Below, piece after piece: positions 1,415 through 16,506 of a DNA stretch of 64,000 nt. Position numbers and translations under genes: made by a program. The notes below the pieces were generated by a model. It saw nothing but the letters and a program-made list of their open reading frames with translations, was not told where the DNA came from and searched no databases. Source of the stretch: Candidatus Binataceae bacterium (GTDB taxonomy: Bacteria; Desulfobacterota; Binatia; Binatales; Binataceae). The stretch spans positions 86,754-150,753 of the forward strand of contig JBEKJC010000006.1 in the NCBI GenBank assembly GCA_050011435.1, given 5' to 3'. Within the stretch, counting starts at the first letter, position 1. Each line of letters starts with the position of its first letter.

Positions 1415-2554
1415 TCAAATCAGGGGGCCGCGGCGGGTGCGGCGCAGGTGCGTATACGCGCGCTGTGTGGCGACGCGGCCGCGCGCCGTGCGCGCAAGAA
1501 AACCCTCCTGCAACAGGTAGGGCTCGTACACCTCGCCGATAGTATCGGCCTCCTCGCCGACCGCCGCGGCGAGGCTCTCGACGCCGACCGGACCGCCGTC
1601 GAACTTATCGATGATCGCGGCCAGGATCGCGCGGTCCATGCGGTCAAATCCGCAAGCGTCGATTTCGAGCAGTTCGAGCGCCGCCAGCGCGACCTCGCGC
1701 GTGACCACCGCGGCACCGTTGACCTGGGCAAAGTCGCGCACGCGCCGGAGCAAGCGATTGGCGATACGCGGAGTGCCGCGCGAGCGGCCGGCGACTTCTT
1801 GTGCGCCGAGGTCGTCGAGGCGCACGTTCAGCAGGCGCGCCGAACGATGAACGATTTCGCTCAGGTCGGCACGGTCATAAAAGTCGAGATGGAAATGCTG
1901 GCCGAAGCGATCGCGCAACGGCGAACTGAGGAGTCCCGAACGCGTGGTCGCGCCAATCAACGTGAAAGGTTTTACCGCCAGACGCATGGAACGCGCCCCC
2001 GGCCCCTTGCCGACGACGATGTTGAGCTCGAAATCTTCCATCGCAGGGTAAAGGATTTCTTCGATTTGGCGCGCGAGACGATGAATCTCGTCGATGAAGA
2101 ACACGTCGCCCTCGTCGAGATCGTTGACGATCGCGGCGAGATCGCCGGCGCGCTCGATCGCGGGACCGGAGGTGGCGCGCAGGTTGACGCCGAGTTCGCG
2201 CGCGATGATGTGCGCGAGCGAAGTCTTGCCGAGCCCCGGCGGTCCGGAGAAGAGCACGTGATCGAGCACCTCGCCACGCTGGCGCGCAGCCTCGATCGAC
2301 ATCCCGAGGATTTTCTTGAGGCGCTCCTGACCGACGAAATCGTCGAGCGAACGCGGCCGCAGCGAAAGGTCAAAGACGACCTCTTCCTCGACGGCGGGCG
2401 GCGCTTCCACCAGCGCGCCGTCCTGGTCGCGAACAGCTTTGGCCTTGCGACCGGCTTTCGGCTGCGGCGCCACCTTGGTGGTTTCCCGAGGCGCGTCGCC
2501 GACTTCGATCCCGGTTTCGATTTCCGCGGTTTCGATTTGATGCTTACTTTTCAC
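1415..2554 (-). CDS. ruvB: Holliday junction DNA helicase RuvB (with ~45-aa K/A/P-rich N-terminal extension if the first ATG is used)
   Basis: Walker A ([11 protein letters not shown]), RuvB sensor motifs, and a conserved LRPxxLDDFVGQ start region. Sits in the yebC-ruvCAB operon context. Confidence 0.9.
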
Positions 2555-3161
2555 CGAGCAGCACCGCGAGCGATTTTCGAATCAGCGCCTCGAGTCCCTC
2601 TGGCACGCTGTCCGCACCGATCGAATCGACCGCGCGCTTGGCTTCGACCGGCTTGTAACCGAGATTGACCAGCGCCGAAAGCGCGTCATCGAGCATCGGA
2701 TTTGCGCTGCCGTGCCCGTTAGCGGATGCGCTCGGACGTTCGGCCACGGACACGTTCAGCGCGGAGATTTTATCGCGCAATTCGCGCACACAACGCTCGG
2801 CAACCTTGGGACCAACGCCCGGCACGGCGTCGATTCGATCGACGTCCTCCTGCGTAATCGCGTCCACCAGATCCTCGGGCGACAGCACCGAGAGAATCGC
2901 AAGAGCGAGCTTTGGACCGACGTGCTGGACGCCGAGCAAAAGATCAAAAGCCTGCTTTTCCGACGCGGTCGCAAATCCATAGAGCGTAATCGAATCTTCG
3001 CGCACGACCTGGCGAATTTCGAGTTCGACCGGCGCGCCGGCCGCAGGGATGCGGTAGTAGGTTGCGAGCGGAATGAAAACCTCGTAGCCGACGCCGGCGG
3101 TATCGACCACGAGCCGGCCGGCTTCGCGAATTTTGACGCGGCCCGAGAGTGAAGCGATCAC
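2544..3161 (-). CDS. ruvA: Holliday junction DNA helicase RuvA
   Basis: Alignment-quality match to the RuvA N-terminus (VIASLSGRV...GVGYEVFIP...[10 protein letters not shown]). A GTG start overlaps the ruvC stop. The longer ORF 5' part is R/A-rich gibberish. Confidence 0.8.
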
Positions 3162-3712
3162 GGCTTCACTCCCAAAAGTGAGACTGAACGGACCGGACGC
3201 CGCGGCATCGACTTGCGGCCCGCGGGCCGTTGCACCGATAGCGGCATCTTGGCGCGGAAGAGATGGCACAGCGAGATCGCAAGAGCGTCGGTGGCGTCTT
3301 CGGCGAGATCGCCGGGGACGCCGGCGCCGATCGTGCGCTGGACCATTTCCTTGACTTGCCGCTTATCGGCGCGCCCGTAGCCGGCGATTGAAAGCTTCAC
3401 GTCGGTGGGAGTGTATTCGAAAAGATCCAGTCCACGATGCGCCGCCGCCAGCATCACCATCGCGCGCGCCTCGCCTAGCTTGAACGCGCTTTGAATGTTA
3501 ACGGCGACGAAGCTGCGCTCCAGACTAATCGCGTCGGGAGCGTGGGCGTCGATTACGTAGATCAATTTTTCGTAGATGGCAGCGAGCCGGGCCGGACCGC
3601 GCAGCGTGCCGGCGCGAATCGTTCCCGCGGTGATGTAGGTTAGATCACCGCCGCGATCGACTATGCCAAAGCCGGTGATCGCGTTGCCGGGGTCCACTCC
3701 AAGTACCCGCAT
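3158..3712 (-). CDS. ruvC: Crossover junction endodeoxyribonuclease RuvC
   Basis: MRVLGVDPG...GFGIV RuvC N-terminus with a GAGGTG SD 9 nt upstream. Conserved RNaseH-fold acidic residues. Confidence 0.9.
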   Translation of the reverse strand: MRVLGVDPGNAITGFGIVDRGGDLTYITAGTIRAGTLRGPARLAAIYEKLIYVIDAHAPDAISLERSFVAVNIQSAFKLGEARAMVMLAAAHRGLDLFEYTPTDVKLSIAGYGRADKRQVKEMVQRTIGAGVPGDLAEDATDALAISLCHLFRAKMPLSVQRPAGRKSMPRRPVRSVSLLGVKP

Positions 3713-3766
3713 TCCCACACCTCAACCACCACCGCCCGTCACTTCAAGTGCAACGCGCAAGGGCAT

Positions 3767-4519
3767 TTACGCCGCCGAGAATTGCGCCATCACTTCGTCA
3801 TCGATATCAAAATTGGACGAAACGCTCTGAACGTCGTCGTGATCTTCGAGCTCTTCCATCATCTTGAGGACCTGCTCGGCGGCGTGGCCTGAAACCTTGA
3901 CGGTGTTCTCCGGCATCATGGTTACTTCGGCGCCAACCATCGCGATACCGGCCTTTTCGATGGCGTCGCGCACGGTCTGAAACTTCTCCGGCGCGGTCAT
4001 TACCTGGTAGCCCTCTTCTTCGCTGAGCACGTCGTCGGCGCCGGCGTCGAGCGCCAATTCGATGAGCTTGTCCTCGTCGGCGGCGCCCTTTTCGACCGAG
4101 ATCACGCCACGCTTCTTGAACATCCACGCGACGCATCCGGACTCGCCGAGGTTGCCGCCGTGACGCGACAAGATATAGCGCAATTCGGCGACGACACGGT
4201 TGCGATTGTCGGTGAAGACGTCGATTATCACGGCGACGCCGCCGGCGCCGTAACCCTCGTAAACGATTTGTTCGAGCTGGCCGCCGCCAAGTTCTCCGGT
4301 GCCCTTTTTGATCGCGCGATCGATGTTATCGTTGGGCATCGACTGTTGGCGGGCGGTGAGGACCGCCGTGCGCAGGCGCGGATTAGCGTTGATGTCGCCG
4401 CCGCCGAGGCGCGCCGCGATAGTGATTTCCTTGATCAGCTTGGTGAAGAGCTTGCCGCGTTTGGCGTCGCGTGCGCCCTTCTTGTGCTTGATCGAGCTCC
4501 ACTTGGAATGACCTGACAT
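3767..4519 (-). CDS. yebC: YebC/PmpR family DNA-binding transcriptional regulator
   Basis: [28 protein letters not shown] hallmark N-terminus. The ORF upstream of the internal Met is non-homologous. Start estimated by codon arithmetic (+/-1 nt). Confidence 0.9.
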
Positions 4520-4704
4520 GACCGTTAGCCTCCGGGGCCGCCCTTGCATGGCGATTCCCGTCCGCTGGCAGCGTAGCATAGACGGCGGGCGCTGGGGGAG
4601 CAGGTCAAGCGCGCTCAGCGGAGAGGCAGCAACCGTTGCGCGCGGAGGGCGGTCGTGGCGGAGGATATAGTCGTCGGCTACATCCTCCGCCATCTATGGG
4701 ATGG

Positions 4705-5220
4705 CTATGGGGTTTGCCTGGGCGGCTTCGCTTCGTCGAACTTCAGTGACAGCTCCGCGATCCCGGCGGCGACATTGAGGCCGTTCTGGCCCTCGATCGA
4801 GACCGGCTGAAGCGCGATCGACGTCTTGAATCCGCCAACGAGGACGTTAGCGCCGGCACCTACGCCGAGCGCCACACTGGCGGTGGCACCGCCGTAATGG
4901 CCAGCCAGCGCACCCGGGTTAAGATTGCTGGTGGGGGCGACCACGGCCCACAGAATGACGGCCGAGGAGAGATAGCCAATGTCGGCGCCAAACTTGGTGA
5001 TCGAGCCCGTATAGTATTCGGTGTAGTTCTTGTCCCTTGCGTAGGCGCACTTGACGTCACGCGAGGAGCCGAAGACAAAGCCCCATCCGCTCGCGACGTG
5101 GCAGGTCAGGTAGCCCGCACGGACGGTCGCCTTATCCTGCGCATGCGCGGAAGGCACGCACAGTCCTATCGCCGCCATCATTAGGGCAGCGCTGACGAGG
5201 TTGCGAATTCGTACGTTCAT
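4705..5220 (-). CDS. Secreted DUF992-like protein (signal peptide, conserved Cys pair)
   Basis: Signal peptide MMAAIGLCVPSAHA. The GYLTCHV..GSSRDVKC pattern is typical of the DUF992 family. Gly/Ala-rich C-terminus. Confidence 0.55.
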   Translation of the reverse strand: MNVRIRNLVSAALMMAAIGLCVPSAHAQDKATVRAGYLTCHVASGWGFVFGSSRDVKCAYARDKNYTEYYTGSITKFGADIGYLSSAVILWAVVAPTSNLNPGALAGHYGGATASVALGVGAGANVLVGGFKTSIALQPVSIEGQNGLNVAAGIAELSLKFDEAKPPRQTP

Positions 5221-5695
5221 TCAGATCCTTCTCCTTGCGCTGGATACTTCGCACACGGCCCGTTCCAGCTTTACGGACAATCGGTTTCGAGGATCGCGCA
5301 CGGCGGCCGTACACACTTGAATCTCTTCGGCAGGCGATTCCGGTCCAACGGGCCGGACTGCGATCCGGGAAGAATCTCGAGTTCGCGCTCACTGCCGATG
5401 CCTTTGCGGTTGGAAGCCGCCGGCAATTAGGAATCTGCGGGAAATGCGGCGGTCGGCAAACTTCACTCAGTCTCGGTCGAAAACGAACGATCGGTAGTTC
5501 GGTGGCAAGACTAGCGCCAGATTGTTGCGGGAGGCAAATTATTTCTACTCGACCGATACAGGTGACAGATGTTTGATTTGGCCGGGTAATGCCGCGATCG
5601 CGCGTGGACGGCGGTCGAAGTGCTCTCGATCGTCAACCGTAGCCGCCCCGGTTCGAGTCGCGTCGCATGCGTTTATGCTATTTGGATGGTCGACG

Positions 5696-6226
5696 ATGAA
5701 ACGGTTGTTCTGTTCCCTCTTCCTGGCGTTAGCCGCGGCCGGGTGTTTTTATCCACCGACAGCAAAGCCGGTGGCCGACGATAAATACCAACTGACGCTC
5801 GCGCTGCCGTTCGACCTCGCCTGGGATGCGGTGCATACGGTGATCGCCGATAACGGCCTTCACATCATCGCCGAGGATCCGAACAACGGGATTATCGAGA
5901 GCCAGGCGGTCACCGGCTTCGATCTGAAGGACGCCGACTGCGGCGACCTCCGAGGAATCGCGACCAAGTATCACGCCGAGCCGGATGCCGGATCTTCAGC
6001 GGTCTATAATTTCGCGGTGAAGCCTCAGGGCAATGAAGCGAGCGTCGTCAGTCTGCAGGCGGTCTTCACTTCACCGCTGCACGTGCCGCTGCGTACCATG
6101 AGCGAGGAGAATTGCGTTTCACGCGGACTGCAGGAGGCGCGGTTGTTGAAGGAGATCGCGCAGCAGGCGCAGAGGGAGCATCGGCCGGAGTTCAAGCCGC
6201 CGGAGGAGGGGGAAAGGAGATCGTGA
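5696..6226 (+). CDS. Lipoprotein of unknown function
   Basis: MKRLFCSLFLALAAAGC lipobox at an internal ATG (5696). The upstream ORF part lacks coding character. Confidence 0.5.
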   Translation: MKRLFCSLFLALAAAGCFYPPTAKPVADDKYQLTLALPFDLAWDAVHTVIADNGLHIIAEDPNNGIIESQAVTGFDLKDADCGDLRGIATKYHAEPDAGSSAVYNFAVKPQGNEASVVSLQAVFTSPLHVPLRTMSEENCVSRGLQEARLLKEIAQQAQREHRPEFKPPEEGERRS

Positions 6227-6420
6227 AACCTTTGAAAGGTTTCACACTTCCCACAGTGATAGACCCAGTCCCACAGTGATAGACCCAGGTCGGTCTTGCG
6301 GATCGTGTCGATAACACCCTTCGCGGACACGGAAGCGAGGTGCTTTTTTTCAGTGATTGACGAGCAGACCAACAGTCTTGACCTGACTTTTCGGACCGCT
6401 CGCGATGCTCGGGTAAGCGG
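6223..6420. repeat. Intergenic repeat element, copy 1 (hairpin module + tandem 19-bp duplication + inverted box module)
   Basis: GTGAAACCTTTGAAAGGTTTCACACTTCCC hairpin, then 2x CCCACAGTGATAGACCCAG. It also contains the reverse complement of CCCGAGCAnCGCGAGCAGTCCGAAAAGTCAGGTCAAGACTGTTGG, which occurs at 33.8 kb and 10.7 kb. Confidence 0.8.
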
Positions 6421-6544
6421 CCAAGCCCAACGGTAGCGGCGAGCGCAAATGCCTGGAATACGCGCGCAGCATCGCGCGAGATCCTTCGCGGCCTCAGGAT
6501 GACACAAGAAACGCTTTCATCACTAGTGACGACGTGGACGCCCG

Positions 6545-7318
6545 TTAGGTCTCCGACACGCTTGCACTAAAAAGCCACCATCCGACGGCGGCGAGAATTA
6601 TGAAGGCGACGAAGACCGCGACGAGGCTCCAGGTCTGGCCGATCGGTCCAGTGACTTCGTCCTTGCGGATCTGTTCGAGATTGAACACGTATTTTTCACC
6701 CGGCGGCGGACCGTCAACTTTGACGACGCTGGCGCGGCGAAAGAAGGCCTTGCCGCGGTTGAGGTTCATGAAGCCGCCGAGTCGCAAAGCCACGTCGACG
6801 TCGCCGCCTTTCGGGCCGACGCGAAGATAAAAGCCGAGTCTGGTCCAATCATTGGTGCGCTTGAGATCGGCCGACATGATGCTGTCCTCGAGCACGCTGA
6901 TGGTCGCGCCGATGAAGAAGGGCAGGATCTTATCGGTGCGCGCCTCGACGCTGACGTAATACCATCCGGGGCCGAGTGACACGGTCTGCAGCCAGCGCGC
7001 GTCGTTGTCGTGATGAGTGTCGATCTCGACCTCGGCGGGTTCCGCGCCGACGGGCGGGATCCATTTGAATTCCGTAGCCGTGGGCGAGAGGATCCACGCG
7101 TCCACGCGCCATCCGTCGCAGGAGGCGCCCGAGCGGCGAGCGAAGTCGCCGTTGTTGAGCAGGTTGACGTTGGCGGGGCGGGCAACTCGCGGCCCCATTA
7201 TCACAGCCAGCGTCACCGCCGCGATCGTGAGGGCAATACGGACGGCGCCGCAACGCGCCATTGGTCGGATTTTGCGCGCGCCTAAGCGTTCAAAGTTGTA
7301 CTCGTTCCGGCGACTCAT
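6545..7318 (-). CDS. Bitopic membrane protein with CBM4_9/galactose-binding-like domain, translationally coupled to the upstream glycosyltransferase
   Basis: N-terminal TM (IALTIAAVTLAVIM), an NLLNNGDFA..GW motif typical of CBM_4_9 domains, and a C-terminal TM (LVAVFVAFIILAAVGWWLF). Its ATG lies 4 nt after the upstream gene stop. Confidence 0.5.
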   Translation of the reverse strand: MSRRNEYNFERLGARKIRPMARCGAVRIALTIAAVTLAVIMGPRVARPANVNLLNNGDFARRSGASCDGWRVDAWILSPTATEFKWIPPVGAEPAEVEIDTHHDNDARWLQTVSLGPGWYYVSVEARTDKILPFFIGATISVLEDSIMSADLKRTNDWTRLGFYLRVGPKGGDVDVALRLGGFMNLNRGKAFFRRASVVKVDGPPPGEKYVFNLEQIRKDEVTGPIGQTWSLVAVFVAFIILAAVGWWLFSASVSET

Positions 7319-7322
7319 GATG

Positions 7323-10300
7323 TCAGATCCAATTCCGCAGGCCGGGGCCCTCGAGCCACATGCGCGCGTAGTAGCCCGCGCGCGCAATCGGCAGAGCGAT
7401 CCACACTGGCAAGTAGTAGATGAAGATGCCGAACGCGCAGCCGAGGAATGCGAGACAAACAAAGCGGCCGCTGAGTTGTGGTCGTTTCCTGAGCGGAATC
7501 CATGCGAAGGTCAGCAGCAGCACGAACGGCAGGCCCGCGGCCGGGCGCAGGCTTTCAGAGATGAAGCTCGGCTTGAGTGCGACGGCTATATGCCCGAGTC
7601 CGAGGGCGAGCGCCGGCAGCATCGTCAGCAGCACGGCGAAGGTTTCCCACAGCTCGCAGTTGCCTTCCCAGAAATCGGCTAGTATGGCGCCGAGCGCGAG
7701 ATAGCCGAGAAAGATCGAAGGCATGTAGTGATAGAGAAACAGGATGCGGCCGATGGGGATCCAGATTACAAAGTTCGCCAGATAGCCAATCACGAGGAAA
7801 GTGCGGGTCAGGCCAGGACGTTCAAGCGCGCGCACCGCGGTGATCGTCATCGCGGGAATCACGCCCCACCACAGGATCGGATTGCCGGCGCCCCAGATGG
7901 TCGCGACGTCGCCTTTATCGGGGAAATTCTGCCAATAGGCGACCGGCCGCAGCATCAGCGGCCAGCTCCACCAGGGCGAAGCATAAGGATGCGTCGCGGT
8001 CGAGACGCTTTTCTCGTACCACATCACGTCCTTGTAGTAGTGAAAGAGGTCCGCGATGCCGCCCCACCATCCGAGGTAGTAATGCGGCAGAAAGCAGGCG
8101 AGATAGAAGACCGCCGCGATTCCACCCAGCATGAGGACCGCGCCGGCGATGCGCCGATCGCGCACTTTTGCGCTAATCGCTTTGGCTCGCGCGAGTTCCG
8201 GCCGGGCCAGCGTGTAAACGATAAATCCGGTGACCAGCATGAAGGCGATCGCCGGCACGTAAAGTTTCGAACCCAGGCAGAGACCGAGCGAGATACCGAG
8301 AAAGACCAGAGTGCGGCGACGATCGCGCCAATCAGGATTCTGGATAAAGCGGAACATCAGCAAGTAGGAGATCGCGGCGAAGGTCAGGTACACGATATCG
8401 ATCACGGCGATGCGTGAATCGACGAGGAAGAAGCCGTCGGACACGATGAAGCTTGCGGCCAGCGCGGCGGCCAGACGCGAGCGGAACATCCTGCGTCCAA
8501 GCAGATAGGTGACGCCGGCGAGGATGGTGCCCATCGTCGCGACGCCGAGGCGCCAGGCCCATGGAACATCGCCGAAGAGTTTGATGCCGAGCACGATCAG
8601 AATCTTGGCCAGCGGCGGGTGCGGATCGAGAAAGGTCTCGCCGCGCAGGTAATGGCGCGCCTGCCCGACGAAATGAACTTCGTCGAAGACCAGTTCATTG
8701 GGATGGCCGAGGTGCCAGAAGCGCAGGGCGGCGGCGACCGCGAGCACCACGAACAGCACGATGGTATCGGTATGCAGCCACGGAAAAGGGGTGTAGGTCT
8801 CCGCCGGCGGCGGACCGAGTTTGAACCAGCCGTGGCTGGTCGCGATCGGAGTATCGCCAGCCTTGCCTATCGCGGCGACCTTGGCCGCGCTTTTTTTGGG
8901 CGCCCCGCCTTCTTCCTCTGCAGCCATCTCCGCCCCCGCCAGATTCGCGTTTGCCCGGGCCCAGCCGTAACCGGCCACTGCCGCGAACGCAACCAGATTA
9001 ACCAGTGACGCGGCCATCGCAAAGATGTCGCGCGAATCGAGGAAAACCGCCAACTGAAGCGCGTGCAGCACGTACGCAAGATTGAACAGGCAGGTCAGCG
9101 TCAGCAGGACGAAGACCCCCAACATCGCGGGTTCGGCCAGCGCGAGCGGCAACGCAAATACGACGGCGGCATAAAAGTAGCGCTCGTGCATGCGCGGCGC
9201 CAGCATGAAAAATCCAAACATCGCGAGAAACGAGCAGAACAGCAGATTGCGCTGGTCGGGCGCGCGCCACAGGAGCCACGCGACAAACGCATAAAACGGC
9301 ACCAGCGCCGTCATCCCGATGGCGAAATACGATATGCCGAACACGGTTTGCGCGTCCGATTCGCGCAATCCGCCGATCAGCGCCATCAGGTTGAACGCGT
9401 TGACCGAAGTTTCGCGGTAGTAGGCCGCGCCGCTGACATAGAGGTCCGGAAGCCAACTCAACGGATGACCAATCTGGAACGGTGCCGCTCCGATCACCAC
9501 GATAGCCGCGAACGCCAGGATGGAGCGCCACCATTTGCGCGGCTCGAGGCGTAGCAGCGTCCACAGTCCGAGCATCGGCATGAGCGAAAATGCCTGTGGC
9601 TTGATCAGGACCGCGAGCGCGGCGAGACCCCAGCCGACTTCGAATTCGGCTTCGAGCATCATCGCGACGCTGAGAAAGAGCGTCAACGTGAGCGGCGAAT
9701 CGGTCTGTCCCCACACCACGGAATCGAACAGGAGCGCGGGATTGAGTGCGACCAGGGCGAGGGCAATCCAGGCTGAACGCAGGCCCAGCAGACGCCGGAC
9801 GAACAGATACACCGCGAGCGCGAGCGCAAAGTCGCCGATCAGCGGCGGCATCTGGATGATGACTTTGAGGGCCTGGCCGCCGTCGATGCCCAGCGCGCTC
9901 GCCAGCGCGCCCGCAGCCCATAGCGCATAGAGATAGCCCGGCGGGTAGTCGAGAAAGTAGCCTTGCTGATAGGTGCGTGCCGGACCCACGGCGGTGATCT
10001 TAAGCGCCCACGCCTCGTAGGTGCCGAGGTCAACGCTGAAGCCGCTGAACAGCGAGAGCGCAAAGGCTTTGAGCGCGAGCAAGCCGGTGAGCAGCAGCAG
10101 GACGCGCTTCAGATCGCGATCGCGCTCATGCACGAGCGGCCGTGCGAGCAGCCAGAGCGCATAGCACAGCAGCGCCGCCAGGATTGCTCCCGCGACGACG
10201 CCGGCGGGCTTACCGGTCGCCATGGGCGCGGACTGGCCGGCCGCGTAAGCGTACGCGCTGCGCGGCATCGCGAGGGTCGCGAACGCGATCGCCAAACCGA

Positions 10301-10406
10301 TCGCGCTAATCGCGGTTGACGACGCCGCGTTACTCGAACGCATCATCTTGCGAATGCATAATTCTGCCGATGCCAAGGCTTGCGCGGCCGCCTCCTCCTG
10401 CCTCAT
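7323..10406 (-). CDS. Large polytopic membrane protein: tandem fusion of two GT-C-fold glycosyltransferase modules (C-terminal half PMT/GT39-like with FDEVHF motif)
   Basis: 1027-aa continuous ORF, hydrophobic throughout. The C-terminal half has the PMT-family DE motif (FDEVHFVGQARHY) and a PMT_4TMC-like tail. The N-terminal half has a first-loop DYPPGYLY motif, as in GT87/Gpi18-like families. A low-complexity hydrophilic linker (AEEEGGAPKKSAAKVAAIGKAG) joins them. Confidence 0.7.
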   Translation of the reverse strand: MRQEEAAAQALASAELCIRKMMRSSNAASSTAISAIGLAIAFATLAMPRSAYAYAAGQSAPMATGKPAGVVAGAILAALLCYALWLLARPLVHERDRDLKRVLLLLTGLLALKAFALSLFSGFSVDLGTYEAWALKITAVGPARTYQQGYFLDYPPGYLYALWAAGALASALGIDGGQALKVIIQMPPLIGDFALALAVYLFVRRLLGLRSAWIALALVALNPALLFDSVVWGQTDSPLTLTLFLSVAMMLEAEFEVGWGLAALAVLIKPQAFSLMPMLGLWTLLRLEPRKWWRSILAFAAIVVIGAAPFQIGHPLSWLPDLYVSGAAYYRETSVNAFNLMALIGGLRESDAQTVFGISYFAIGMTALVPFYAFVAWLLWRAPDQRNLLFCSFLAMFGFFMLAPRMHERYFYAAVVFALPLALAEPAMLGVFVLLTLTCLFNLAYVLHALQLAVFLDSRDIFAMAASLVNLVAFAAVAGYGWARANANLAGAEMAAEEEGGAPKKSAAKVAAIGKAGDTPIATSHGWFKLGPPPAETYTPFPWLHTDTIVLFVVLAVAAALRFWHLGHPNELVFDEVHFVGQARHYLRGETFLDPHPPLAKILIVLGIKLFGDVPWAWRLGVATMGTILAGVTYLLGRRMFRSRLAAALAASFIVSDGFFLVDSRIAVIDIVYLTFAAISYLLMFRFIQNPDWRDRRRTLVFLGISLGLCLGSKLYVPAIAFMLVTGFIVYTLARPELARAKAISAKVRDRRIAGAVLMLGGIAAVFYLACFLPHYYLGWWGGIADLFHYYKDVMWYEKSVSTATHPYASPWWSWPLMLRPVAYWQNFPDKGDVATIWGAGNPILWWGVIPAMTITAVRALERPGLTRTFLVIGYLANFVIWIPIGRILFLYHYMPSIFLGYLALGAILADFWEGNCELWETFAVLLTMLPALALGLGHIAVALKPSFISESLRPAAGLPFVLLLTFAWIPLRKRPQLSGRFVCLAFLGCAFGIFIYYLPVWIALPIARAGYYARMWLEGPGLRNWI

Positions 10407-10573
10407 CGTACGGCCATCGCCATCGCTCGCGGGTGTTCACCGAAAAAAACGACAACCGCCTCGCGCGCGGAGATAACATATCGCAGGGTGAATGGCAGAT
10501 GAACGGGCGCGGTGCGCGTCTATCCGCGCAGAGGTTGTTGAGGAACTTAAGACCTTTGGTTTCTTTCCGGACA

Positions 10574-10780
10574 CTGAAACCGCATTGAGGTTTCAGACTC
10601 CCCTCTGGTAAAGATGCGGGCTTCGCCCTGTAAAAAGGGGCCGCATAAGATTGCGAGATCGCTCAGCGCCGAACGCATGATACAGGATGCGGGCGATGAT
10701 AGCGGGATCGAGCAGCGCGAGCAGTCCGAAAAATCAGGTCAAGCAAGACTGTTGGGCTGCTGGTCAATCATTGAAAAACG
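10574..10780. repeat. Intergenic repeat element, copy 2 (divergent promoter region)
   Basis: Contains CTGAAACCGCATTGAGGTTTCAGACTCCCC, GATGCGGGCTTCGCCCTGTAAAAA, ATCGAGCAGCGCGAGCAGTCCGAAAAATCAGGTCAAGCAAGACTGTTGGGCTGCTGGTCAATCATTGAAAAACG. Confidence 0.8.
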
Positions 10781-10843
10781 CAACTGGCGGGTGACGCCAT
10801 CGGCGATCTATGATTGTGCCTGCCACAAAGGAGACAAATCCGC

Positions 10844-11506
10844 ATGAAGCTTGTTCACGCCACTTGGGAACCGTCGGGCCCCGGCCCGTTTCCGACGATT
10901 TTCGCGATGCATGGGTGGGGCTCCAACGCGATGGACCTGCAGGGGCTCGCGCCATTCGTCGCCGACGGCCGCTTCCTCGTCATCTGCCCGCAAGGATCGT
11001 TCGAAGTCGAAATCGGTGCGATCAACGGATATGGCTGGTACCAGATGCGCCCGGGTTCGCAGCCCGACCCTGAGAAAGTCGATGTGGCAGTGGATCAATT
11101 GCGCGAGTTCATCGACGACGCTTGTGCACGCTATCCGGTTGATCCGAGCAAGATCGTGGTGGCGGGATTCAGCCAGGGCGGCTATATGGCGTACAGCCTC
11201 GCGATGCGCTGGCCGGAGCGCTTCGCCGCGCTGGTCGGAATCGCGACCGCGTTTCCCGAGCGCCTCACGAGCCTGGTCACGAATCATGAGGCGGTGCAGA
11301 AATTGCCCACGATGGTGCAGCATGGACGCGCCGACCAGGCGATTGATATGACCCGCGCGCGCAAGTCGGTTGAGGCGCTGCGTGAACTGAAAGTGCCGGT
11401 TGTATTTCGCGAGTACGATTGCGGTCATGAAGTCGCGGCCGACGGCATACGCGATCTCTCCGCCTTCCTGATCGACAAGGTCGCGGGGCCGATCAAACAG
11501 CCGTAG
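10844..11506 (+). CDS. Phospholipase/carboxylesterase family alpha/beta hydrolase
   Basis: GFSQGG nucleophile elbow with a conserved His near the C-terminus. GGAG SD before the ATG at 10844. Confidence 0.8.
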   Translation: MKLVHATWEPSGPGPFPTIFAMHGWGSNAMDLQGLAPFVADGRFLVICPQGSFEVEIGAINGYGWYQMRPGSQPDPEKVDVAVDQLREFIDDACARYPVDPSKIVVAGFSQGGYMAYSLAMRWPERFAALVGIATAFPERLTSLVTNHEAVQKLPTMVQHGRADQAIDMTRARKSVEALRELKVPVVFREYDCGHEVAADGIRDLSAFLIDKVAGPIKQP

Positions 11507-11537
11507 CGGCCGGCCGCGTTTTGTTGGATTTTCGCGC

Positions 11538-12341
11538 ATGAGCGATGACACTTCGCAGGCCGCCGATCGGGAATTCGCGCGACTCTTGACTGTGCTGCGG
11601 GAACTTCGGCAGCGCTGCCCCTGGGATCGCGAGCAGACTATCGCGAGTCTCGGCAAGCATCTGGTCGAAGAGGCTTACGAGGCGCTCGACGCGATCGAGC
11701 GCGACAACGGGCACGCGATCGTCGATGAGTTGGGCGACCTCATCGCGCAGGTACTCGCGGTCGCCGTGATCGCGGAGGAGCGGCAGCGCTTTCGCATCGC
11801 GGAGCTGTTCCAATGGGCGGCCGACAAACTCGTGCGACGCCATCCACACGTTTACGGGGACACCGAGGCGGCGACCTCCGCCGACGTCATCGATAACTGG
11901 AACCGCATCAAGCAGGAAGAACGCGCGGTAGCTGGGGCGACCTCGGCCCTCGACGGCGTCGCGCGGGCGATGCCGGCGCTCGCGCGGGCGGAAAAGCTCG
12001 GTTCGCGCGCGCGTCACGCCGGGATGGACTGGCACGACATTCACGATGTGCTCGCCAAGGTGCGCGAGGAGATGGACGAGGTCGAGGGCGCGCTCGCGAA
12101 CAACGATACTGACGCGGCGGCCGGCGAACTCGGCGATATGCTGCTCGCGTTGGCGAATGCGCCCCGCTTCATCGATCACAACGCGGAGGAGACGCTGCGG
12201 CGCGCGTGCGACAAGTTCACCCGGCGTTTCGTTGCGGTCGAGCAACTCGCGGAGAGTCGCGGACTCGACTTGAAGCAGATGCACCCCGAGGAGATCGACG
12301 CCCTCTGGAATGAGGCGAAGCAAAATTTGCGTGGGAACTAA
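11538..12341 (+). CDS. mazG: Nucleoside triphosphate pyrophosphohydrolase MazG
   Basis: Tandem MazG domains (EExxEALDAIE, RRHPHVYGD, EExGDxLLAL). Confidence 0.85.
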   Translation: MSDDTSQAADREFARLLTVLRELRQRCPWDREQTIASLGKHLVEEAYEALDAIERDNGHAIVDELGDLIAQVLAVAVIAEERQRFRIAELFQWAADKLVRRHPHVYGDTEAATSADVIDNWNRIKQEERAVAGATSALDGVARAMPALARAEKLGSRARHAGMDWHDIHDVLAKVREEMDEVEGALANNDTDAAAGELGDMLLALANAPRFIDHNAEETLRRACDKFTRRFVAVEQLAESRGLDLKQMHPEEIDALWNEAKQNLRGN

Positions 12342-12342
12342 C

Positions 12343-12537
12343 ATGAAGCTACGCCGCGCTGCTGCGCTTGTGCTTGTGCTCCTGCCGATTCTCAATGGAT
12401 GCGGCTCTGACTCCGAGTCTCAGCGGCCACACTTCGTCGATCATTTCTGTCCGGGAGCTTGTCCGCCCTCTACCAATGAGGTCCGATTTCCTGCGGAGAG
12501 TATTCGTGTTCGGACTTATGGACAGCAACGATATTAA
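12343..12537 (+). CDS. Possible small lipoprotein (atypical codon usage)
   Basis: MKLRRAAALVLVLLPILNGC lipobox. A/T-ending codons unlike neighbouring genes and a weak SD. May be spurious. Confidence 0.25.
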   Translation: MKLRRAAALVLVLLPILNGCGSDSESQRPHFVDHFCPGACPPSTNEVRFPAESIRVRTYGQQRY

Positions 12538-12642
12538 GACACCCTGCATTTCAAACTAAGGCACTCAGCCCGAAATTAACCCAGTACCCTATAGACTACA
12601 GATATTGATCGGGGGCGCGCGGGCTGTTAGGTATGACTGGTT

Positions 12643-12957
12643 ATGCCGCATATTCCAATTCATCCGTCAGCCGAGAAGCGCCACCGCCAGAGCCTGAAGC
12701 GCCAGCAGCGCAATCGCTCGATCAAGACCCGCGTACGGACCGCCTCCAAGAACGCCCTTGAGGCGATCGAGGGCAGCGACAAGCAGGCCGCCGCGACCGC
12801 GCTACAGAACGCAATGAAGGTGCTTTACAAGGCCGCGAGCAAGGGCACGCTGCGCAAAAATACGGTCGCGCGCAAGGTTGCGCGTCTCTCGCGTCGCTAC
12901 CATCGCACGCACGAAGCGGCAAAGTCGGAGTCCGCGCCGGCCGCATCGAAGAGCTAG
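12643..12957 (+). CDS. rpsT: 30S ribosomal protein S20
   Basis: Basic KRHRQSLKRQQRNRSIK N-terminus and an AxxKGxxHKNxAARxxxRL core typical of bS20. Confidence 0.85.
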   Translation: MPHIPIHPSAEKRHRQSLKRQQRNRSIKTRVRTASKNALEAIEGSDKQAAATALQNAMKVLYKAASKGTLRKNTVARKVARLSRRYHRTHEAAKSESAPAASKS

Positions 12958-12982
12958 TCGTTTCTGCTCGGCCGGCGGCTCG

Positions 12983-14053
12983 TCAGCTTTCCGCCGGCGC
13001 CATCAGATCAAGCAGCATCGATGAAATGGCCGATTCACGCTCGTGAATCAGGCCATTCTTGAATTTTGCGTCGAGCTCGCAGGCGCGCCTATGCGCGCGC
13101 ATCAGACGCTGCGCACCGAAGCGCCGTCCACCATCAACCGCGCGCACGACTAACTGGCTGGTCGGCTGCATCCCCAGGACGCGGGCCACATCGGCGGGAG
13201 ACTTGCGCTTTTCCAGCATCGACGCCGCCACCAACATCCGCCGCACCAGCGGAATTACCTCGACCGCGAGAACTTCGATAGGATCGCGCCCGGTCTGAAT
13301 CGCTCGATCGAAGAGTGCCAGCGCCTCGTCCGGTCGGCCGCGCGCCACGCTCTCCGCCAATTCGAACAAATCCGGAATTCGCGTGGGGCCCCCAGCCCCA
13401 AAGTCCGAGCTTTCGATCTTGGCGCCATCGGCGCTCGAGATTGCGGCCTTGGCGAGCGCGTTGGAAATCGCAGCGAGGTCGCTGCCATGACGCCCGATCA
13501 GCAGATCGATTGCGGTTGACGTCAGTTTGAGCCCGAGCTTTTGCGCGAAGACTTCGACGTACTGTCCGATTTGATTATCATACGGCCGTAGGCAGTTGAT
13601 GACCGTGCCGATCTTCTCAACCACTCGCCGAATCTTCGCCGGCGCGTTGTCGCGCTCATAGACCAGGGCGACGTGTACCGGTCCGGATATCCGTTCCAGC
13701 GCGGCGCCCAGCGCTGATTCATCGGCAGCACCACCGGATTTGCCTTCGACGCCGTCGCCGTCATCATCATCGGCGGCACTCGCTCGTTCGCGATGGGTTT
13801 TCAGGACGCGACACGCGATCAGCCGCTTGGGTGCGAAGAGGTCGGCGCCTTCGAGTTCGCTGATCGCGCCGCCATATCCGTCGGCGCCGCCGACCTGAAA
13901 CGGCCGGTACTGGAAACCCGCGGACGCCAGATGCAGGCGCACGGTATCGAGGACGTATTCGCGCAGGAACGGCTGGGGCCCGGCGATCAGAAATACCGGC
14001 GGAGCCGCACGCCCGCCGCCGCGCAGAAAGGCGAGCGCGTTCTCAACCGCCAT
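12983..14053 (-). CDS. holA: DNA polymerase III subunit delta
   Basis: HolA-like N-terminus (VFLIAGPQPFLREYVLD). Conserved gene order lptE-holA. Confidence 0.8.
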   Translation of the reverse strand: MAVENALAFLRGGGRAAPPVFLIAGPQPFLREYVLDTVRLHLASAGFQYRPFQVGGADGYGGAISELEGADLFAPKRLIACRVLKTHRERASAADDDDGDGVEGKSGGAADESALGAALERISGPVHVALVYERDNAPAKIRRVVEKIGTVINCLRPYDNQIGQYVEVFAQKLGLKLTSTAIDLLIGRHGSDLAAISNALAKAAISSADGAKIESSDFGAGGPTRIPDLFELAESVARGRPDEALALFDRAIQTGRDPIEVLAVEVIPLVRRMLVAASMLEKRKSPADVARVLGMQPTSQLVVRAVDGGRRFGAQRLMRAHRRACELDAKFKNGLIHERESAISSMLLDLMAPAES

Positions 14054-14106
14054 CGCGCGCTTCCCGGCAAATCGATTCGCGAGCGCGCCCCGAACTCATC
14101 GGCCGG

Positions 14107-14793
14107 CTAAAAGCCCTCGCTCATCGAGGAGTAGAGATTCTGCGCCAGCATCTGCATCGCCTGCTCCTGCGAGGACGCCTGCTGACTTTGAGCGACCTGG
14201 ATATCCTGCATGCTCGCGATCTCCCGCGAGCGCAGGTTTTGCTGCACGAAATACGGCGACGTGGTCACCACGGCTTCGCCCACCGTCGGTGTTTGCTGGC
14301 TGCTGCTGATGCCGTGCGTGGCCCAGATTACCTTGTGGTCATGGGCGTCGGTCAACTTCGCATCGGCGCTGATCGTCTGCGTATAGATGGTCGGTTCGCT
14401 GGCCGAGTTGAAGCCTACTGGCAGCGAATCCGAATAGACGATGTCGCCGCTCAGGACGAGGTCGGCCTCCGACGCGCTATCGACCATTTCGAGGCGCTTG
14501 TGATTCGCGATCTCGTCTTCGACGAAGCGCATGAACTCGTCGTTGATGCCGGTGTGGCGCGTGCGATTACCGAACCTCTCGACGTAAATGGTTTTCGCCT
14601 GGGGCGGCAGCCCGCTGCCCTCGGCCGCGAAATGATAGCCGCACCCTGACGCAACGATCGCAATCGCGGCCAGCGCGATCCGCGAAATTATTGCGGAAGG
14701 CTGCGCGCATGCACCGATCCGCGCAAACGCTCGGTGGATCGGCGGCGCACCCTGATTAAGCCTGGTGGGGTTTGGCCGGATTACTTTCCTCAC
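14107..14793 (-). CDS. lptE: LPS-assembly lipoprotein LptE
   Basis: Lipobox IVASGCGYHF (E. coli LptE has SGCGWHL). LptE-like fold region GDIVYSDSLPVG. Sits between nusB and holA. The start overlaps nusB by 38 nt and the N-region is unusually long, so the true start is uncertain. Confidence 0.6.
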   Translation of the reverse strand: MRKVIRPNPTRLNQGAPPIHRAFARIGACAQPSAIISRIALAAIAIVASGCGYHFAAEGSGLPPQAKTIYVERFGNRTRHTGINDEFMRFVEDEIANHKRLEMVDSASEADLVLSGDIVYSDSLPVGFNSASEPTIYTQTISADAKLTDAHDHKVIWATHGISSSQQTPTVGEAVVTTSPYFVQQNLRSREIASMQDIQVAQSQQASSQEQAMQMLAQNLYSSMSEGF

Positions 14794-15208
14794 CTTTTTC
14801 CTTCAGCCTGAGCCGCGTCGCAACCTGATCGAGCACGCCGTTGACGAAGCGACCCGATTCCTGGTCGCCATAAGTCTTGGCCAGTTCGATCGCCTCATCG
14901 ATAGTTACGCGCGCGGGAATGTCTTCCATCCGCTGCAATTCGAAAATCGCGAGCCGCAAAATATTATGATCGACGCGCGAGAGCCGTCCAATCGACCAGT
15001 GCTCGAGCACGTCGGCAATCTGCTTGTCCAGGGCGGCCTGCTCTCCGCGCACTCCCGTCACCAGATTTACCGCGAACTTGCGCGCCACGTCCTCGGCCGG
15101 AAATGTATCGAAGAACAGCGCGAGGTCCTCGGTCGAGGCGCCGCCGCGCAGATCGATTTGATACAACGCCTTGAGCGCGAGTTCGCGGCCTATGTGTCTG
15201 GTTCCCAT
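14756..15208 (-). CDS. nusB: Transcription antitermination factor NusB
   Basis: GRELALKALYQIDLRGG...RLAIFEL NusB signature. Confidence 0.9.
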   Translation of the reverse strand: MGTRHIGRELALKALYQIDLRGGASTEDLALFFDTFPAEDVARKFAVNLVTGVRGEQAALDKQIADVLEHWSIGRLSRVDHNILRLAIFELQRMEDIPARVTIDEAIELAKTYGDQESGRFVNGVLDQVATRLRLKEKGEESNPAKPHQA

Positions 15209-15285
15209 CGTCGCAATCGTGTCGAGGCGCCGTCAAATCCCCGCGATGCAGTGCGGGCGTCTGCGCGCCGACGCGCTCCCGGCCG

Positions 15286-16506
15286 TCAAGTGGCGACCTT
15301 GAGTTGCGTGAACATGTGGCCGAGCTTTTCCTTCTTGGTGCGCAGATAATCGATGTTGCCGATGTGCGGCACCACTTCGAGCGGCACCCGCGTCACGGTC
15401 ACGCCATAACGTTGCAGGCTTTCAATCTTGTGCGGATTGTTGGTCAGCAGACGGACTTCTCCGATCCCCAAATCGCGCAGAATCTGCGCCCCGATTCCAT
15501 AGTCGCGCAGGTCGTCCTTGAAGCCCAGTTCCAGGTTCGCTTCGACCGTATCGAGACCCTGATCCTGCAACGCGTAGGCCTTGATTTTGTTTCCGAGCCC
15601 GATCCCGCGCCCCTCCTGATGGAGGTAGATGATGACGCCGGCCTCCGCCGCCATTATCTGCTGGATCGATTGAGAGAGTTGCTCGCCGCAATCGCAGCGG
15701 TTGGAACTGAAAACGTCGCCGGTCAGGCATTCGGAATGCAATCGAACCAGAGCCGGACGGCCATTGCCGACGTTGCCCTTGACCAGCGCCAGATGCTCGC
15801 GTCCATCGACGATATTGCGGAAGACGACCGCTTGAAGATCACCTTCCGGAAGGGTGAAACGGCTTTCGCCGACCCGCTGAACCAGGATTTCGTTGGTCAG
15901 GCGATGGGAGACGAGCTGGCTGGTGAATATCAGCGGAAGTTCGTGGGTGGTGGCAAACTCGCGCAGTTCAGGCAGGCCCGCCGATTCGCCGTCTTCACGC
16001 AGAATCGCACAGAGCGCGGCCGCCGGACGCATCCCCGCACTGCGCACGAGATCGACCGCTCCTTCAGCGCGCCCCATCCGCATCATCACGCCGCCGCTCA
16101 GCGCCATCAAGGGCAGCACATGACCCGGCATCACGAGGTCTTCGGGTCCGGATTTGTCGGCGGCAAGCACTCCGATCGTCATGGAGCGATCGGCGGCTGA
16201 GATTCCCGTCGTGACGCCTTCGCGCGCTTCGACCAGGGCCCCGGCCTGCTCGACCATTTCGCCGCCGAGACTCGACGGCACCAGTGGGATACCGAGTTCT
16301 CGCAGGCGCTTTTCGGGAAGCGCGACCGAGACCACGCCACGCCCCTGCGTCACCATGAAATTTACATGTTGCGGAGTGACTTTCTCCGCCGCCATCACCA
16401 GATCGCCTTCGGCGTTCTCGCTGTCGTCTGAAACCAGCACGACCATGCGGGCGGCGCGAATCTGGCTGAAGACGTCCTCCAATACCGTTGCGATCACTTG
16501 TTTCAC
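15286..16506 (-). CDS. ribBA: Bifunctional 3,4-dihydroxy-2-butanone-4-phosphate synthase / GTP cyclohydrolase II
   Basis: RibB motifs ([22 protein letters not shown]) and the RibA Zn motif ([18 protein letters not shown]). Start taken at the GTG just downstream of the ribD stop. The ORF 5' extension is non-homologous. Confidence 0.85.

Follow-up and report, generated by a model that had tools for sequence, protein, structure and literature searches.

The gene at 7323..10406 of the window (the 64,000-nucleotide stretch of DNA analysed here), on the minus strand, is real and conserved; its product is a single chain in which a PimE/ALG6-like membrane glycosyltransferase is followed by a protein O-mannosyltransferase (PMT). 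We lean, modestly, toward the view that it encodes a natural single-chain bacterial protein O-mannosylation complex, with priming by the PMT module and, probably, extension by the GT87-like one. The donor sugar, the protein acceptor, the order of the reactions, the contact between the modules and the role of a downstream partner are all inferred.

A conserved two-module reading frame

The host is a soil Binataceae bacterium. In the open-reading-frame listing and translation of the window, the gene runs from an ATG through 1027 codons to its stop with uninterrupted translation, while the plus-strand translation of the same interval is full of stops. The initial annotation's single continuous frame therefore stands, with its strand corrected to minus. 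The true start is probably not the annotated ATG, however, but Met21/Met22 (MMRSS...), since homologues begin there with a signal-peptide-like segment and residues 1-59 are unconserved and modelled at low confidence. That segment (aa 21-53, 10248..10346, minus strand; MMRSSNAASSTAISAIGLAIAFATLAMPRSAYA) has the basic n-region, hydrophobic core and AxA-like end seen in homologues, is poorly conserved and of low pLDDT, and would presumably be cleaved.

Could the fusion simply be two neighbouring but separate genes that an error of sequencing or assembly within the linker has run together? In favour of this, several database entries are split or labelled 'partial', at 507, 587 and 766 aa. The comparative data nonetheless refute this reading for practical purposes, and we regard it as extremely improbable. 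JGI data contain an identical 1027-aa protein (P0121), and independent assemblies supply over 115 full-length homologues with the fusion, 950-1089 aa long and 52-90% identical. The two modules lie adjacent and in synteny in about 70 species-level Binataceae genomes, mostly in one reading frame (the frame is shared in most of the 77 fused loci counted in species-representative genomes), and cultured Paenibacillus has this fusion too, in closed genomes whose contigs measure 5.6-5.8 Mb. Split versions are found at three long-read MAG loci (507+129, 130+766 and 587+396 aa), and three different breakpoints in indel-rich long-read assemblies fit indel errors rather than real gene boundaries. A stop codon missed in the linker, the concern raised at the outset, is thereby excluded.

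Such fusions had been called rare, a claim that did not survive comparison. Among the 150 nearest representatives of the N-terminal module family, taken at 50% identity, 70 carry a PMT module, 28 of these 70 also carry the partner domain described below, and the PMT-fused set includes proteins from cultured Paenibacillus (RefSeq) and from Candidatus Aerophobetes; tandem proteins with two N-terminal modules occur in the family as well. By these sequence counts, the GT87-like/PMT arrangement is common in uncultured and in some cultured bacteria. It has also been mentioned once already, in a July 2026 preprint that points to a Paenibacillus GT87-GT39 fusion (UniProt V9WAU2) in support of dimerisation (bioRxiv 10.64898/2026.07.15.738315). 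RefSeq labels the fused proteins just 'glycosyltransferase family 39 protein', a name that misses half of each.

Two GT-C modules and their candidate active sites

The C-terminal module (aa 545-1027, 7326..8774, minus strand) was predicted from the start to be of the PMT/GT39 type, with an FDEVHF motif and a PMT_4TMC-like tail, and Pfam, phmmer against the PDB and Foldseek all agree. Pfam PMT (PF02366) matches aa 616-776 at 94.5 bits against a cutoff of 22.7 (E 1e-26), PMT_2 scores 50.5 bits, above its cutoff, and PMT_4TMC (PF16192) covers aa 789-1019 (7350..8042, minus strand) at 70.3 bits against 32.4 (E 2.1e-19); PF02366 with PF16192 forms the prototypical PMT core (PMC12331936). The PDB sequence matches are C. 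thermophilum Pmt4 (1.4e-19) and yeast Pmt1 (3.5e-13), Pmt4 and Pmt2, and Foldseek returns Pmt4 (E 1.9e-11) along with Pmt1/2, ArnT and STT3. FDEVHF (aa 574-579, 8670..8687, minus strand) is the catalytic DE motif of loop 1 in PMTs; it shows no variation among 69 homologues, comes straight after TM1 (helix 545-567) and falls at the beginning of helix 573-588. In M. tuberculosis PMT, the Asp of the motif, D74, is essential. At the same time, the NCBIfam equivalog for actinobacterial Pmt, NF058602, is not reached, at 72.3 bits against a cutoff of 800. On these scores the module is a member of the GT39 family and not an equivalog of the characterised bacterial Pmt, so its acceptor and sugar may differ.

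The N-terminal module (aa 98-498, 8913..10115, minus strand) resembles GT87, ALG6, ALG3 and PIG-M, and has 12 predicted TM helices. Its AF2 model (pLDDT 95.5, pTM 0.94) has a PimE-like fold: Foldseek places it with ALG6 (E 3e-6, TM 0.60-0.66) and PimE (9DM7_A, E 3.5e-5, TM 0.60/0.68; 9DM5, E 1.3e-4), the other top matches being ALG3, GPI-MT-I, AglB and ArnT. The best of these, ALG6, PimE, ALG3 and GPI-MT-I, are all enzymes of polyprenyl- or dolichyl-phosphate sugars. Every one of the 29 matches with a probability of at least 0.98 is to a GT-C enzyme or to PIG-U, which is GT-C-like, and on this evidence a transporter identity was rejected. A profile of the module's family finds GPI-MT-I (E 6.7e-11) and ALG6 (E 6.8e-9) among PDB sequences. 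Against Pfam, the window module itself matches neither GT87 (PF09594) nor, at threshold, Alg6_Alg8, and its sole match is to ALG3 (E 0.0057, 16.6 bits, below the cutoff of 23.6), so that 'GT87' is used here as a label for a family neighbourhood and not for membership. Homologues match Pfam GT87, ALG3 and ALG6/8; of 35 family members, 26 give a GT87 match (E<=0.01, best 5e-12), close fused homologues carry a precomputed PF09594 match, and JGI names homologues 'Gpi18-like mannosyltransferase'. The GT87/Gpi18-like character first suggested for this half is thus upheld. Ahead of the canonical GT-C TM1 lies an extra helix, TM0 (aa 66-93, 10128..10211, minus strand; DSSP helix 66-93), followed by the basic cytoplasmic loop HERDRDLKR. 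In relatives with a beta-rich domain fused at the N-terminus, the HMM of that domain and the HMM of the N-terminal module overlap on this helix.

That the chain fuses two GT-C modules, as originally proposed, is supported by their first loops as well as by fold matches to solved GT-C_A enzymes: each has the GT-C_A arrangement, with helices 124-140 and 156-171 and D126 in the N-terminal module, and helices 573-588 and 599-611 and D575/E576 in the PMT module. Asp126 (10029..10031, minus strand; within GFSVDLGTYEAW), which opens juxtamembrane helix JM1 of the first periplasmic loop, aligns with Asp69 of ALG6, the catalytic base, and is invariant in 69 fused homologues, in 35+35 distant members and in 68/68 diverse fused representatives. 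The acidic/aromatic loop-1 motif singled out by the initial annotation, FLDYPPGYLY (aa 151-160, 9927..9956, minus strand), is present at the start of the second juxtamembrane helix and aligns with 'LDYPPLTAF' of ALG6. Y154, P156 and Y158 are invariant or nearly so, and D153 is kept in 67/68 fused forms, less so in standalone paralogues. The likely catalytic acid is nevertheless Asp126, rather than primarily the Asp of this motif. Candidate donor-phosphate-binding residues (9177..9602, minus strand) extend from Lys269-Pro-Gln (9594-9602) to His407-Glu-Arg-Tyr410 (9177-9188), at periplasmic helix ends; each residue is found in 68/68 fused representatives, and HERY aligns with VHEK, the HEK motif of ALG6. 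In PimE, the catalytic Asp at the JM1 tip and the phosphate-binding Lys and His are D58, K195 and H322, and by analogy with K195/H322 the Lys269/His407 region may bind the donor phosphate.

These residues bear on whether the N-terminal half is an enzyme at all. Perhaps only the PMT module is catalytic, and the GT87-like module serves, as a non-enzymatic and Pmt2-like partner, to recruit or place the acceptor polypeptide, with the fusion ensuring 1:1 stoichiometry. This has been proposed likewise for mycobacterial Rv0051/ML2687c: the preprint describes ML2687c as a GT87-family protein without catalytic residues that is still needed for much of the pmt phenotype, cites the Paenibacillus fusion as an instance of the same organisation, and notes unequal roles for the protomers of yeast Pmt1-Pmt2 (bioRxiv 10.64898/2026.07.15.738315). 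A dead enzyme, on the other hand, would be expected to drift at its former active site, where we find Asp126, Asp153, Gln234, Asp236, Lys269, Asn339 and His407-Glu-Arg-Tyr kept in 67-68 of 68 diverse fused representatives, no less strictly than in standalone paralogues, with Asp126 falling on the catalytic base of ALG6 and HERY on its HEK motif. We consider such a non-catalytic role unlikely, at perhaps one chance in four. Because a full active-site-like set is kept (Asp126, Asp153, Gln234, Asp236, Lys269 and His407-Glu-Arg-Tyr), the N-terminal module is most likely active.

Topology, the partner gene and a proposed mechanism

The hydrophilic, low-complexity linker reported between the modules was recovered, at about aa 499-544 (8775..8912, minus strand), as an Ala/Lys/Glu-rich and variable segment whose pLDDT is below 50 over aa 499-527 and which is the least conserved stretch of the protein, without an alignment consensus among 69 homologues. 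It carries six Lys and Arg residues and lies between an out-to-in helix and TM1 of the PMT module. With twelve helices following TM0, the linker falls on the cytoplasmic side and both first loops on the outer side, and the density of Lys and Arg (28/152 inside versus 28/348 outside) and the experimentally cytosolic N-terminus of MtPMT agree with helix counting on the periplasmic location that had been anticipated for both loops. In line with this topology, a beta-sandwich-like insert in Paenibacillus relatives follows TM1 of the PMT module and precedes the DE motif. The whole-chain model reaches a pTM of only 0.67.

Directly downstream, a conserved gene of 257 codons (6545..7318, minus strand) begins with an ATG 4 nt after the fusion-gene stop. 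Its product comprises a signal peptide, a domain of about 170 aa (NLLNNGDF..GSG.S.DGWR.DAW...) predicted to be beta-rich and periplasmic, and a C-terminal TM anchor, and also holds a conserved GPPPG..VFDL.QIRK.EVTGPIG segment. The partner has 264 homologues, and one follows the fusion gene in 68 of the 77 fused loci, that is, wherever the contig continues past it. Neither the window protein nor 34 homologues match Pfam, CBM_4_9 (PF02018) included, and a profile of the partner finds nothing significant in the PDB; a weak, sub-threshold CBM_4_9 match (E 0.006) appears in just one fused relative (P0107). Elsewhere, the same domain and its TM helix are fused N-terminally to GT87-like modules (hhalign against a fused paralogue, probability 99.8, E 4e-29), the 150 representatives including 21 of the form 'domain-Nmod' and 28 of the form 'domain-Nmod-PMT', which suggests that the system has three parts. 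The partner is annotated 'hypothetical' everywhere.

A general pathway can be proposed from these parts. At the periplasmic face, the GT39/PMT module would draw on a polyprenyl-phosphate donor for a sugar that is most likely mannose, and would pass it to Ser/Thr of exported proteins by way of the Asp575-Glu576 loop-1 motif. The cytoplasmic linker of about 45 residues would tether the N-terminal module to the PMT module, so that the two polytopic modules would lie side by side in the membrane, as do Pmt1-Pmt2 or mycobacterial Pmt and its GT87-like partner. The N-terminal module could then add the next sugar, an elongation like that performed by mycobacterial PimE. The two successive transfers suggested by the initial annotation are plausible, by analogy with mycobacterial Pmt and PimE. 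The co-transcribed downstream gene would supply a membrane-anchored, beta-rich periplasmic domain that may sit over the active sites and help to select or hold the acceptor, much as do the MIR domains of eukaryotic PMTs or, as proposed, the Rv3212-type beta-propeller. A scan of the window for GT2 N-terminal motifs, as candidates for polyprenyl-phosphate-mannose synthase, found nothing.

The acceptor might instead not be a protein. Both modules could act on a lipid-linked or cell-envelope glycan (a glycolipid, lipoglycan or exopolysaccharide), with the beta-rich partner holding the growing chain in the manner of the CBMs of EmbC/AftD. The nearest structural relatives of the N-terminal module (ALG6, ALG3, PimE and GPI-MT-I) all add sugars to lipid-linked glycans, and domains of carbohydrate-binding type turn up repeatedly around the family (weak CBM_4_9, NPCBM, weak F5/8 type C). 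Tandem N-module proteins exist as well, and the Pmt equivalog score is far under its cutoff. Against this, the C-terminal module is clearly GT39 by Pfam, by PDB sequence matches, by its DE motif and by PMT_4TMC, and all characterised GT39 enzymes are known to O-mannosylate proteins. We judge a non-protein acceptor to be improbable, more so than a non-catalytic N-terminal module.

Returning to protein O-mannosylation, a stronger form of the preferred reading, which we put forward tentatively and hold to be somewhat short of an even chance, is that both GT-C modules are active and, together with the trans-encoded beta-rich subunit, make up, within a Gram-negative-type phylum (Binatota), a self-contained machine that primes and extends O-glycans. 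If so, it would be the first case of an enzyme whose single chain has two working GT-C active sites, and a naturally tethered model of the Pmt/GT87 heterodimer, and the states of fission and fusion in the family (partner separate, partner fused, tandem N-modules) would preserve a record of the complex's evolutionary assembly. For cryo-EM and mutagenesis, the fusion is a target whose stoichiometry is fixed. The practical worth lies in a better annotation rule and a testable model; there is no new principle.

Comparison with known O-mannosylation systems

Only in Actinobacteria has bacterial protein O-mannosylation been studied well. There, according to the proposal of a 2026 preprint, Pmt acts together with a GT87-like partner and a periplasmic cap; in pull-downs, mycobacterial Pmt brings along a GT87-like protein and a periplasmic beta-propeller, the complex comprising Pmt (Rv1002c), GT87-like Rv0051, beta-propeller Rv3212 and DivIVA-like Rv1209 (bioRxiv 10.64898/2026.07.15.738315). 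The window system likewise combines a GT39 enzyme, a GT87-family-like polytopic protein and a putative periplasmic all-beta accessory. The mycobacterial components, however, are separate polypeptides, their GT87-like subunit is reported to be without catalytic residues, where the window module keeps the putative ones, and their accessory is an eight-bladed propeller rather than a domain of about 170 aa; no DivIVA-like component was seen beside the window gene. The natural covalent fusion in Binataceae, Paenibacillus and Aerophobetes gives independent comparative support for the Pmt/GT87-like partnership, the cap-like domain being sometimes fused and sometimes the next gene across these lineages, and residue conservation suggests that the GT87-like partner is still an enzyme in them.

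The Paenibacillus fusions (V9WAU2; WP_192701364.1, WP_345587066.1; triple-fusion WP_127464583.1) have the same order, GT87-like then PMT, and the same conserved N-module residues. Compared with P0394, the N-terminal module shows 30% identity across 457 aa (E 3e-36), and the PMT module shows 31% across 356 aa (E 2e-39). The Paenibacillus type has a beta-sandwich-like insert of about 140 aa in PMT loop 1 (a weak F5/8 type C match), and many of its members carry the beta-rich partner domain at the N-terminus, for a total of 1250-1335 aa; the window protein, in contrast, has a short linker, no insert and only a signal peptide and TM0 at its N-terminus, its partner domain being a separate downstream gene.

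The yeast Pmt1-Pmt2 heterodimer and Pmt4 homodimer (6P25, 9E61, 9I5K) share with the window protein a homologous C-terminal module, the loop-1 DE, the PMT_4TMC tail and the pairing of GT-C units. Unlike them, the window protein is without a MIR domain, and its partner unit is GT87/ALG6-like rather than a second PMT and is covalently linked. PimE (GT87, 9DM5/9DM7) and ALG6 (GT57, 6SNH), finally, match the N-terminal module in fold and in 12 TM helices with both ends inside, at an identity of only 16-18%, and its Asp at the start of JM1 aligns with D69 of ALG6; the window module differs from both in its extra TM0 and signal peptide and in its fusion to a PMT. Its conserved Lys and His-containing motif at periplasmic helix ends may correspond to K195 and H322 of PimE, and PimE elongates protein O-mannose in Mycobacterium.

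The fusion gene, its locus and its spread

The fusion gene occupies 7323-10406 on the minus strand, an ATG-initiated ORF of 1027 aa in the ORF listing, in whose translation FLDYPPGYLY is seen at aa 151-160 and FDEVHF at aa 574-579. The initial annotation had described one continuous ORF here, and the continuity stands, as the minus-strand translation is uninterrupted; the strand has to be added, as translation of these positions on the plus strand is full of stops. Judging from homologue N-termini, the true start is probably Met21/22, 20-21 codons downstream of annotated aa 1 (annotated start to end of the signal-peptide-like segment, window 10248-10406, minus strand). Homologues begin at a Met of the MMRSS/MRSN type, followed by a signal-peptide-like segment with an AxA-like end. 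This implies that the N-terminus is periplasmic and that one more helix, TM0, precedes the canonical GT-C helices. Such a start is unusual in a polytopic GT-C protein.

The surroundings are those of a housekeeping region. GC content near the gene (0.61-0.63) matches the remaining window, and the neighbours within window positions 1-20000 are ruvB, ruvA, ruvC, yebC, a DUF992 protein gene (4705-5220), an esterase gene (10814-11506), mazG (11538-12341), holA, lptE, nusB, ribBA, ribD, nrdR and fabD. Across Binataceae loci the divergent esterase and MazG genes lie upstream, followed by holA, lptE, nusB and ribBA, with yebC and ruvABC on the downstream side. Because this neighbourhood is kept, the fusion gene is part of the core genome, and not of a glycosylation island.

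Searching with the whole protein retrieved a JGI protein identical to it, together with more than 115 fused homologues that are 950-1089 aa long and come almost exclusively from soil metagenomes and MAGs of Candidatus Binataceae. Many of these have a double name at JGI ('...O-mannosyl transferase/Gpi18-like mannosyltransferase'), while NCBI calls them 'phospholipid carrier-dependent glycosyltransferase'. A one-genome-per-species scan yielded no fewer than 580 relatives, and the 80 top-scoring loci all come from Binataceae or 'delta proteobacterium' MAGs; with three long-read loci added, the two modules are adjacent in 77 of 83 loci, usually in the same frame. In those three long-read MAG assemblies (L001, L002 and L003) the gene does appear split, together with frameshifted and fragmented neighbours such as the ATP synthase genes in L001, and the breaks fall at differing positions; the split copies are indel artefacts. 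Thus, the idea that a missed stop or an assembly error has joined two adjacent genes is rejected, and we consider it wildly improbable in view of the identical JGI protein, the fused homologues, the adjacency of the modules and the variable split points. Many database 'partial' proteins of this family (500-850 aa) are likewise such frameshift artefacts or products of contig ends.

An exhaustive profile search of 1.84 billion representatives extended the N-module family to 12,746 members at E<=1e-3 (3,234 at E<=1e-30), and HMMs of the three parts (N-module, PMT module and the periplasmic domain of the downstream partner gene) were used to sort the best 150 of the 12,746 by architecture. Standalone N-modules account for 53, N-module plus PMT for 42, partner domain plus N-module plus PMT for 28 and partner domain plus N-module for 21, with about 4 tandem N-modules and a single partner, N-module, partner arrangement. 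PMT, PMT_4TMC and GT87 were confirmed by Pfam in sampled members. Carriers include Candidatus Aerophobetes and the cultured Paenibacillus sp. OAS669, P. vulneris and P. pasadenensis, the last with a 1286-aa triple fusion found in closed genomes; these named members are all labelled 'glycosyltransferase family 39 protein', and one Paenibacillus member is 30-31% identical to the window protein in each module. Given these counts and carriers, the earlier description of such fusions as rare is incorrect. The family also holds another double GT-C type, two tandem GT87-like modules without PMT (P0373, P0376, P0377 and P0383), and another carbohydrate-binding-type appendage: the GT87-like protein P0117 ends in an NPCBM/NEW2 domain, a strong match at E 1e-39.

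Two GT-C modules and their membrane topology

The C-terminal half had been taken for a PMT/GT39 module with FDEVHF and a PMT_4TMC tail, and this is borne out by Pfam matches above cutoff to PMT (94.5 bits, cutoff 22.7) and PMT_4TMC (70.3 bits, cutoff 32.4), with PMT_2 also matched, and by the invariance of the DE motif (Asp575-Glu576) and many other positions among 69 homologues. Its PDB sequence matches by phmmer are Pmt4 of C. thermophilum (1.4e-19) and yeast Pmt1, Pmt4 and Pmt2, and Pmt4/Pmt1/Pmt2 proteins again come first in Foldseek with the full-length model. The NCBIfam equivalog of actinobacterial Pmt scores 72 bits against a cutoff of 800. Together, these results place the module in GT39, though not among the orthologues of the bacterial enzyme that has been characterised.

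In isolation the N-terminal half matched only Alg6_Alg8 in Pfam at E<=10 (E 4.3, meaningless), and phmmer against PDB sequences returned nothing relevant. Its standalone relatives of about 440-470 aa from the first homologue search carry GT87, ALG3 and ALG6/8 Pfam matches and the JGI name 'Gpi18-like mannosyltransferase'; among 35 aligned family members GT87 is matched in 26 (best 5e-12), ALG3 in 23 and Alg6_Alg8 in 12, the window module itself matching ALG3 alone, below threshold. An AlphaFold model of aa 61-491 (pLDDT 95.5, pTM 0.94) retrieved ALG6 (E 3e-6), PimE (3.5e-5), ALG3 and GPI-MT-I in Foldseek, followed by AglB/STT3, ALG9/12 and ArnT. A transporter identity is rejected, the Foldseek transporter matches lying at noise level (probability <=0.16, TM <=0.17), and the resemblance to GT87/Gpi18-like enzymes first noted for this half is supported by its relatives' GT87 matches and by fold similarity to ALG6 and PimE. 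The fusion is also no tandem copy of one module, since BLASTP detected no similarity between its two modules (E>4).

Among PDB sequences GPI-MT-I was the sole match of a narrow family profile (A2), whereas a broader one (A4) matched GPI-MT-I at 6.7e-11 and ALG6 at 6.8e-9 across 314 positions. In the A4 alignment invariant Asp126 is paired with the Asp of 'DFEAQRHW' in ALG6, and 'MHERY' of the N-module with ALG6 'VHEK'. The aligned ALG6 residue, SEQRES 87, is native residue 69 if 18 extra construct residues precede the native N-terminus, and Asp69 is the catalytic base of ALG6 (PMC12653191). In PimE the base is Asp58, located at the JM1 tip, and Lys195/His322 serve the phosphate (PMC12041525). 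In the window model Asp126 lies at the start of JM1, with Lys269 and His407, both invariant, at periplasmic helix ends, and we infer that Asp126/Lys269/His407 are equivalent to the PimE residues; phmmer of P0377, the strongest GT87-matching relative, against PDB gave no match and hence no residue alignment to PimE. Among 68 diverse fused representatives, D126, Q234, D236, K269, N339 and HERY are each kept in all, and D153 in 67.

By DSSP of two models, the signal-peptide-like segment (aa ~21-53) is followed by TM0 (66-93), a basic loop, twelve GT-C helices, a 45-residue K-rich linker and the PMT helices, an order that places both first loops and all conserved motifs (WGQxD, KPQ, HERY, DE) in the periplasm and the linker in the cytoplasm. 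Lys and Arg make up 28 of 152 residues in predicted inside segments against 28 of 348 outside. Experimentally, M. tuberculosis PMT has a cytosolic N-terminus and a periplasmic C-terminus (PMC12331936), so the linker must be cytoplasmic. With the helix count and charge bias, this places both first loops in the periplasm. A signal peptide and two hydrophobic segments ahead of the putative catalytic Asp are common to most homologues. In Paenibacillus relatives a beta-sandwich-like insert separates PMT TM1 from the DE motif, which is what a periplasmic loop would lead one to expect; in P0394, P0398, P0386 and P0389 this insert, in catalytic loop 1, is about 140 aa long and weakly matches F5/8 type C (discoidin).

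The putative periplasmic partner encoded downstream

The ATG of the partner gene (6545-7318, minus strand, 257 aa) lies 4 nt past the fusion gene stop. Its product has a signal peptide, a beta-rich domain of about 170 aa, the strongly conserved stretch GPPPG...VFDLxQIRKxEVTGPIG and a TM anchor at the C-terminus; profile searches of Pfam and PDB gave no match, and its 264 homologues, all from Binataceae, are all 'hypothetical'. Of the 77 fused loci, 68 have a homologue of it after the fusion gene, and in the remaining nine the contig stops within that gene or shortly beyond it. One Binataceae genome has a further, paralogous cluster (locus L079, 8001-13406, MAG CAWHNS010000024.1) in which N-module(+PMT) and partner are followed by a standalone PMT of 518 aa and again a partner, so that the PMT-then-partner order occurs twice.

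In distant paralogues the partner domain and its TM helix are fused ahead of the GT87-like module (hhalign probability 99.8, E 4e-29), and there the partner and N-module HMMs share one helix, the counterpart of TM0. The window protein thus resembles a triple fusion in which the periplasmic domain has a gene of its own. A carbohydrate-binding jelly-roll fold for this domain is only a lead: one relative weakly matches CBM_4_9 (E 0.006), and its 'NLLxNGDF' start resembles modules of this kind.

Proposed mechanism and comparison with the mycobacterial Pmt complex

The fusion architecture is already in RefSeq and IMG, and the single mention we found in the literature is one sentence in a July 2026 preprint, on Paenibacillus GT39 enzymes translationally fused to a GT87-family enzyme (bioRxiv 10.64898/2026.07.15.738315). 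Our literature searches found no characterised member of the fusion family and nothing relevant on Binatota glycosyltransferases, nor did they show in print the Binataceae clade, the conserved putative active site of the N-module, a periplasmic partner that recurs either fused or separate, or the TM0 explanation. A crude regex search for a polyprenyl-phosphate-sugar synthase, by the GT2 'xxPxYNE' N-terminal motif in all ORFs of the window that reach 150 aa or more, had no match and was uninformative.

In Mycobacterium, Pmt starts protein O-mannose and PimE, of GT87, elongates it (review PMC12757957). By analogy, the PMT module would prime and the N-module would then extend, with two active sites in one chain. 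For the fusion enzyme we infer sugar and acceptor alike, as well as the order of the reactions and the contacts between its modules; a non-protein acceptor seems to us quite improbable.

The mycobacterial enzyme also offers the closest comparison for the assembly as a whole, in that it is reported to co-purify and co-fold with three partners: Rv0051, a GT87-family protein without catalytic residues; Rv3212, a periplasmic beta-propeller proposed to be a MIR-like active-site cap; and a DivIVA-like protein (bioRxiv 10.64898/2026.07.15.738315). Rv0051 is a precedent for an N-module that is non-catalytic and serves as a scaffold only, a reading we consider unlikely. Unlike Rv0051, the window-type N-module keeps its putative catalytic residues (67-68 of 68), and for this reason we lean, if modestly, towards two active sites that prime and then extend. 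The window gene resembles the mycobacterial complex in that it covalently links a Pmt and a GT87-like part, with the periplasmic accessory domain encoded in trans. The fusion family is of interest mainly because the comparison supports the Pmt-complex model now emerging, and because it makes a good structural target.
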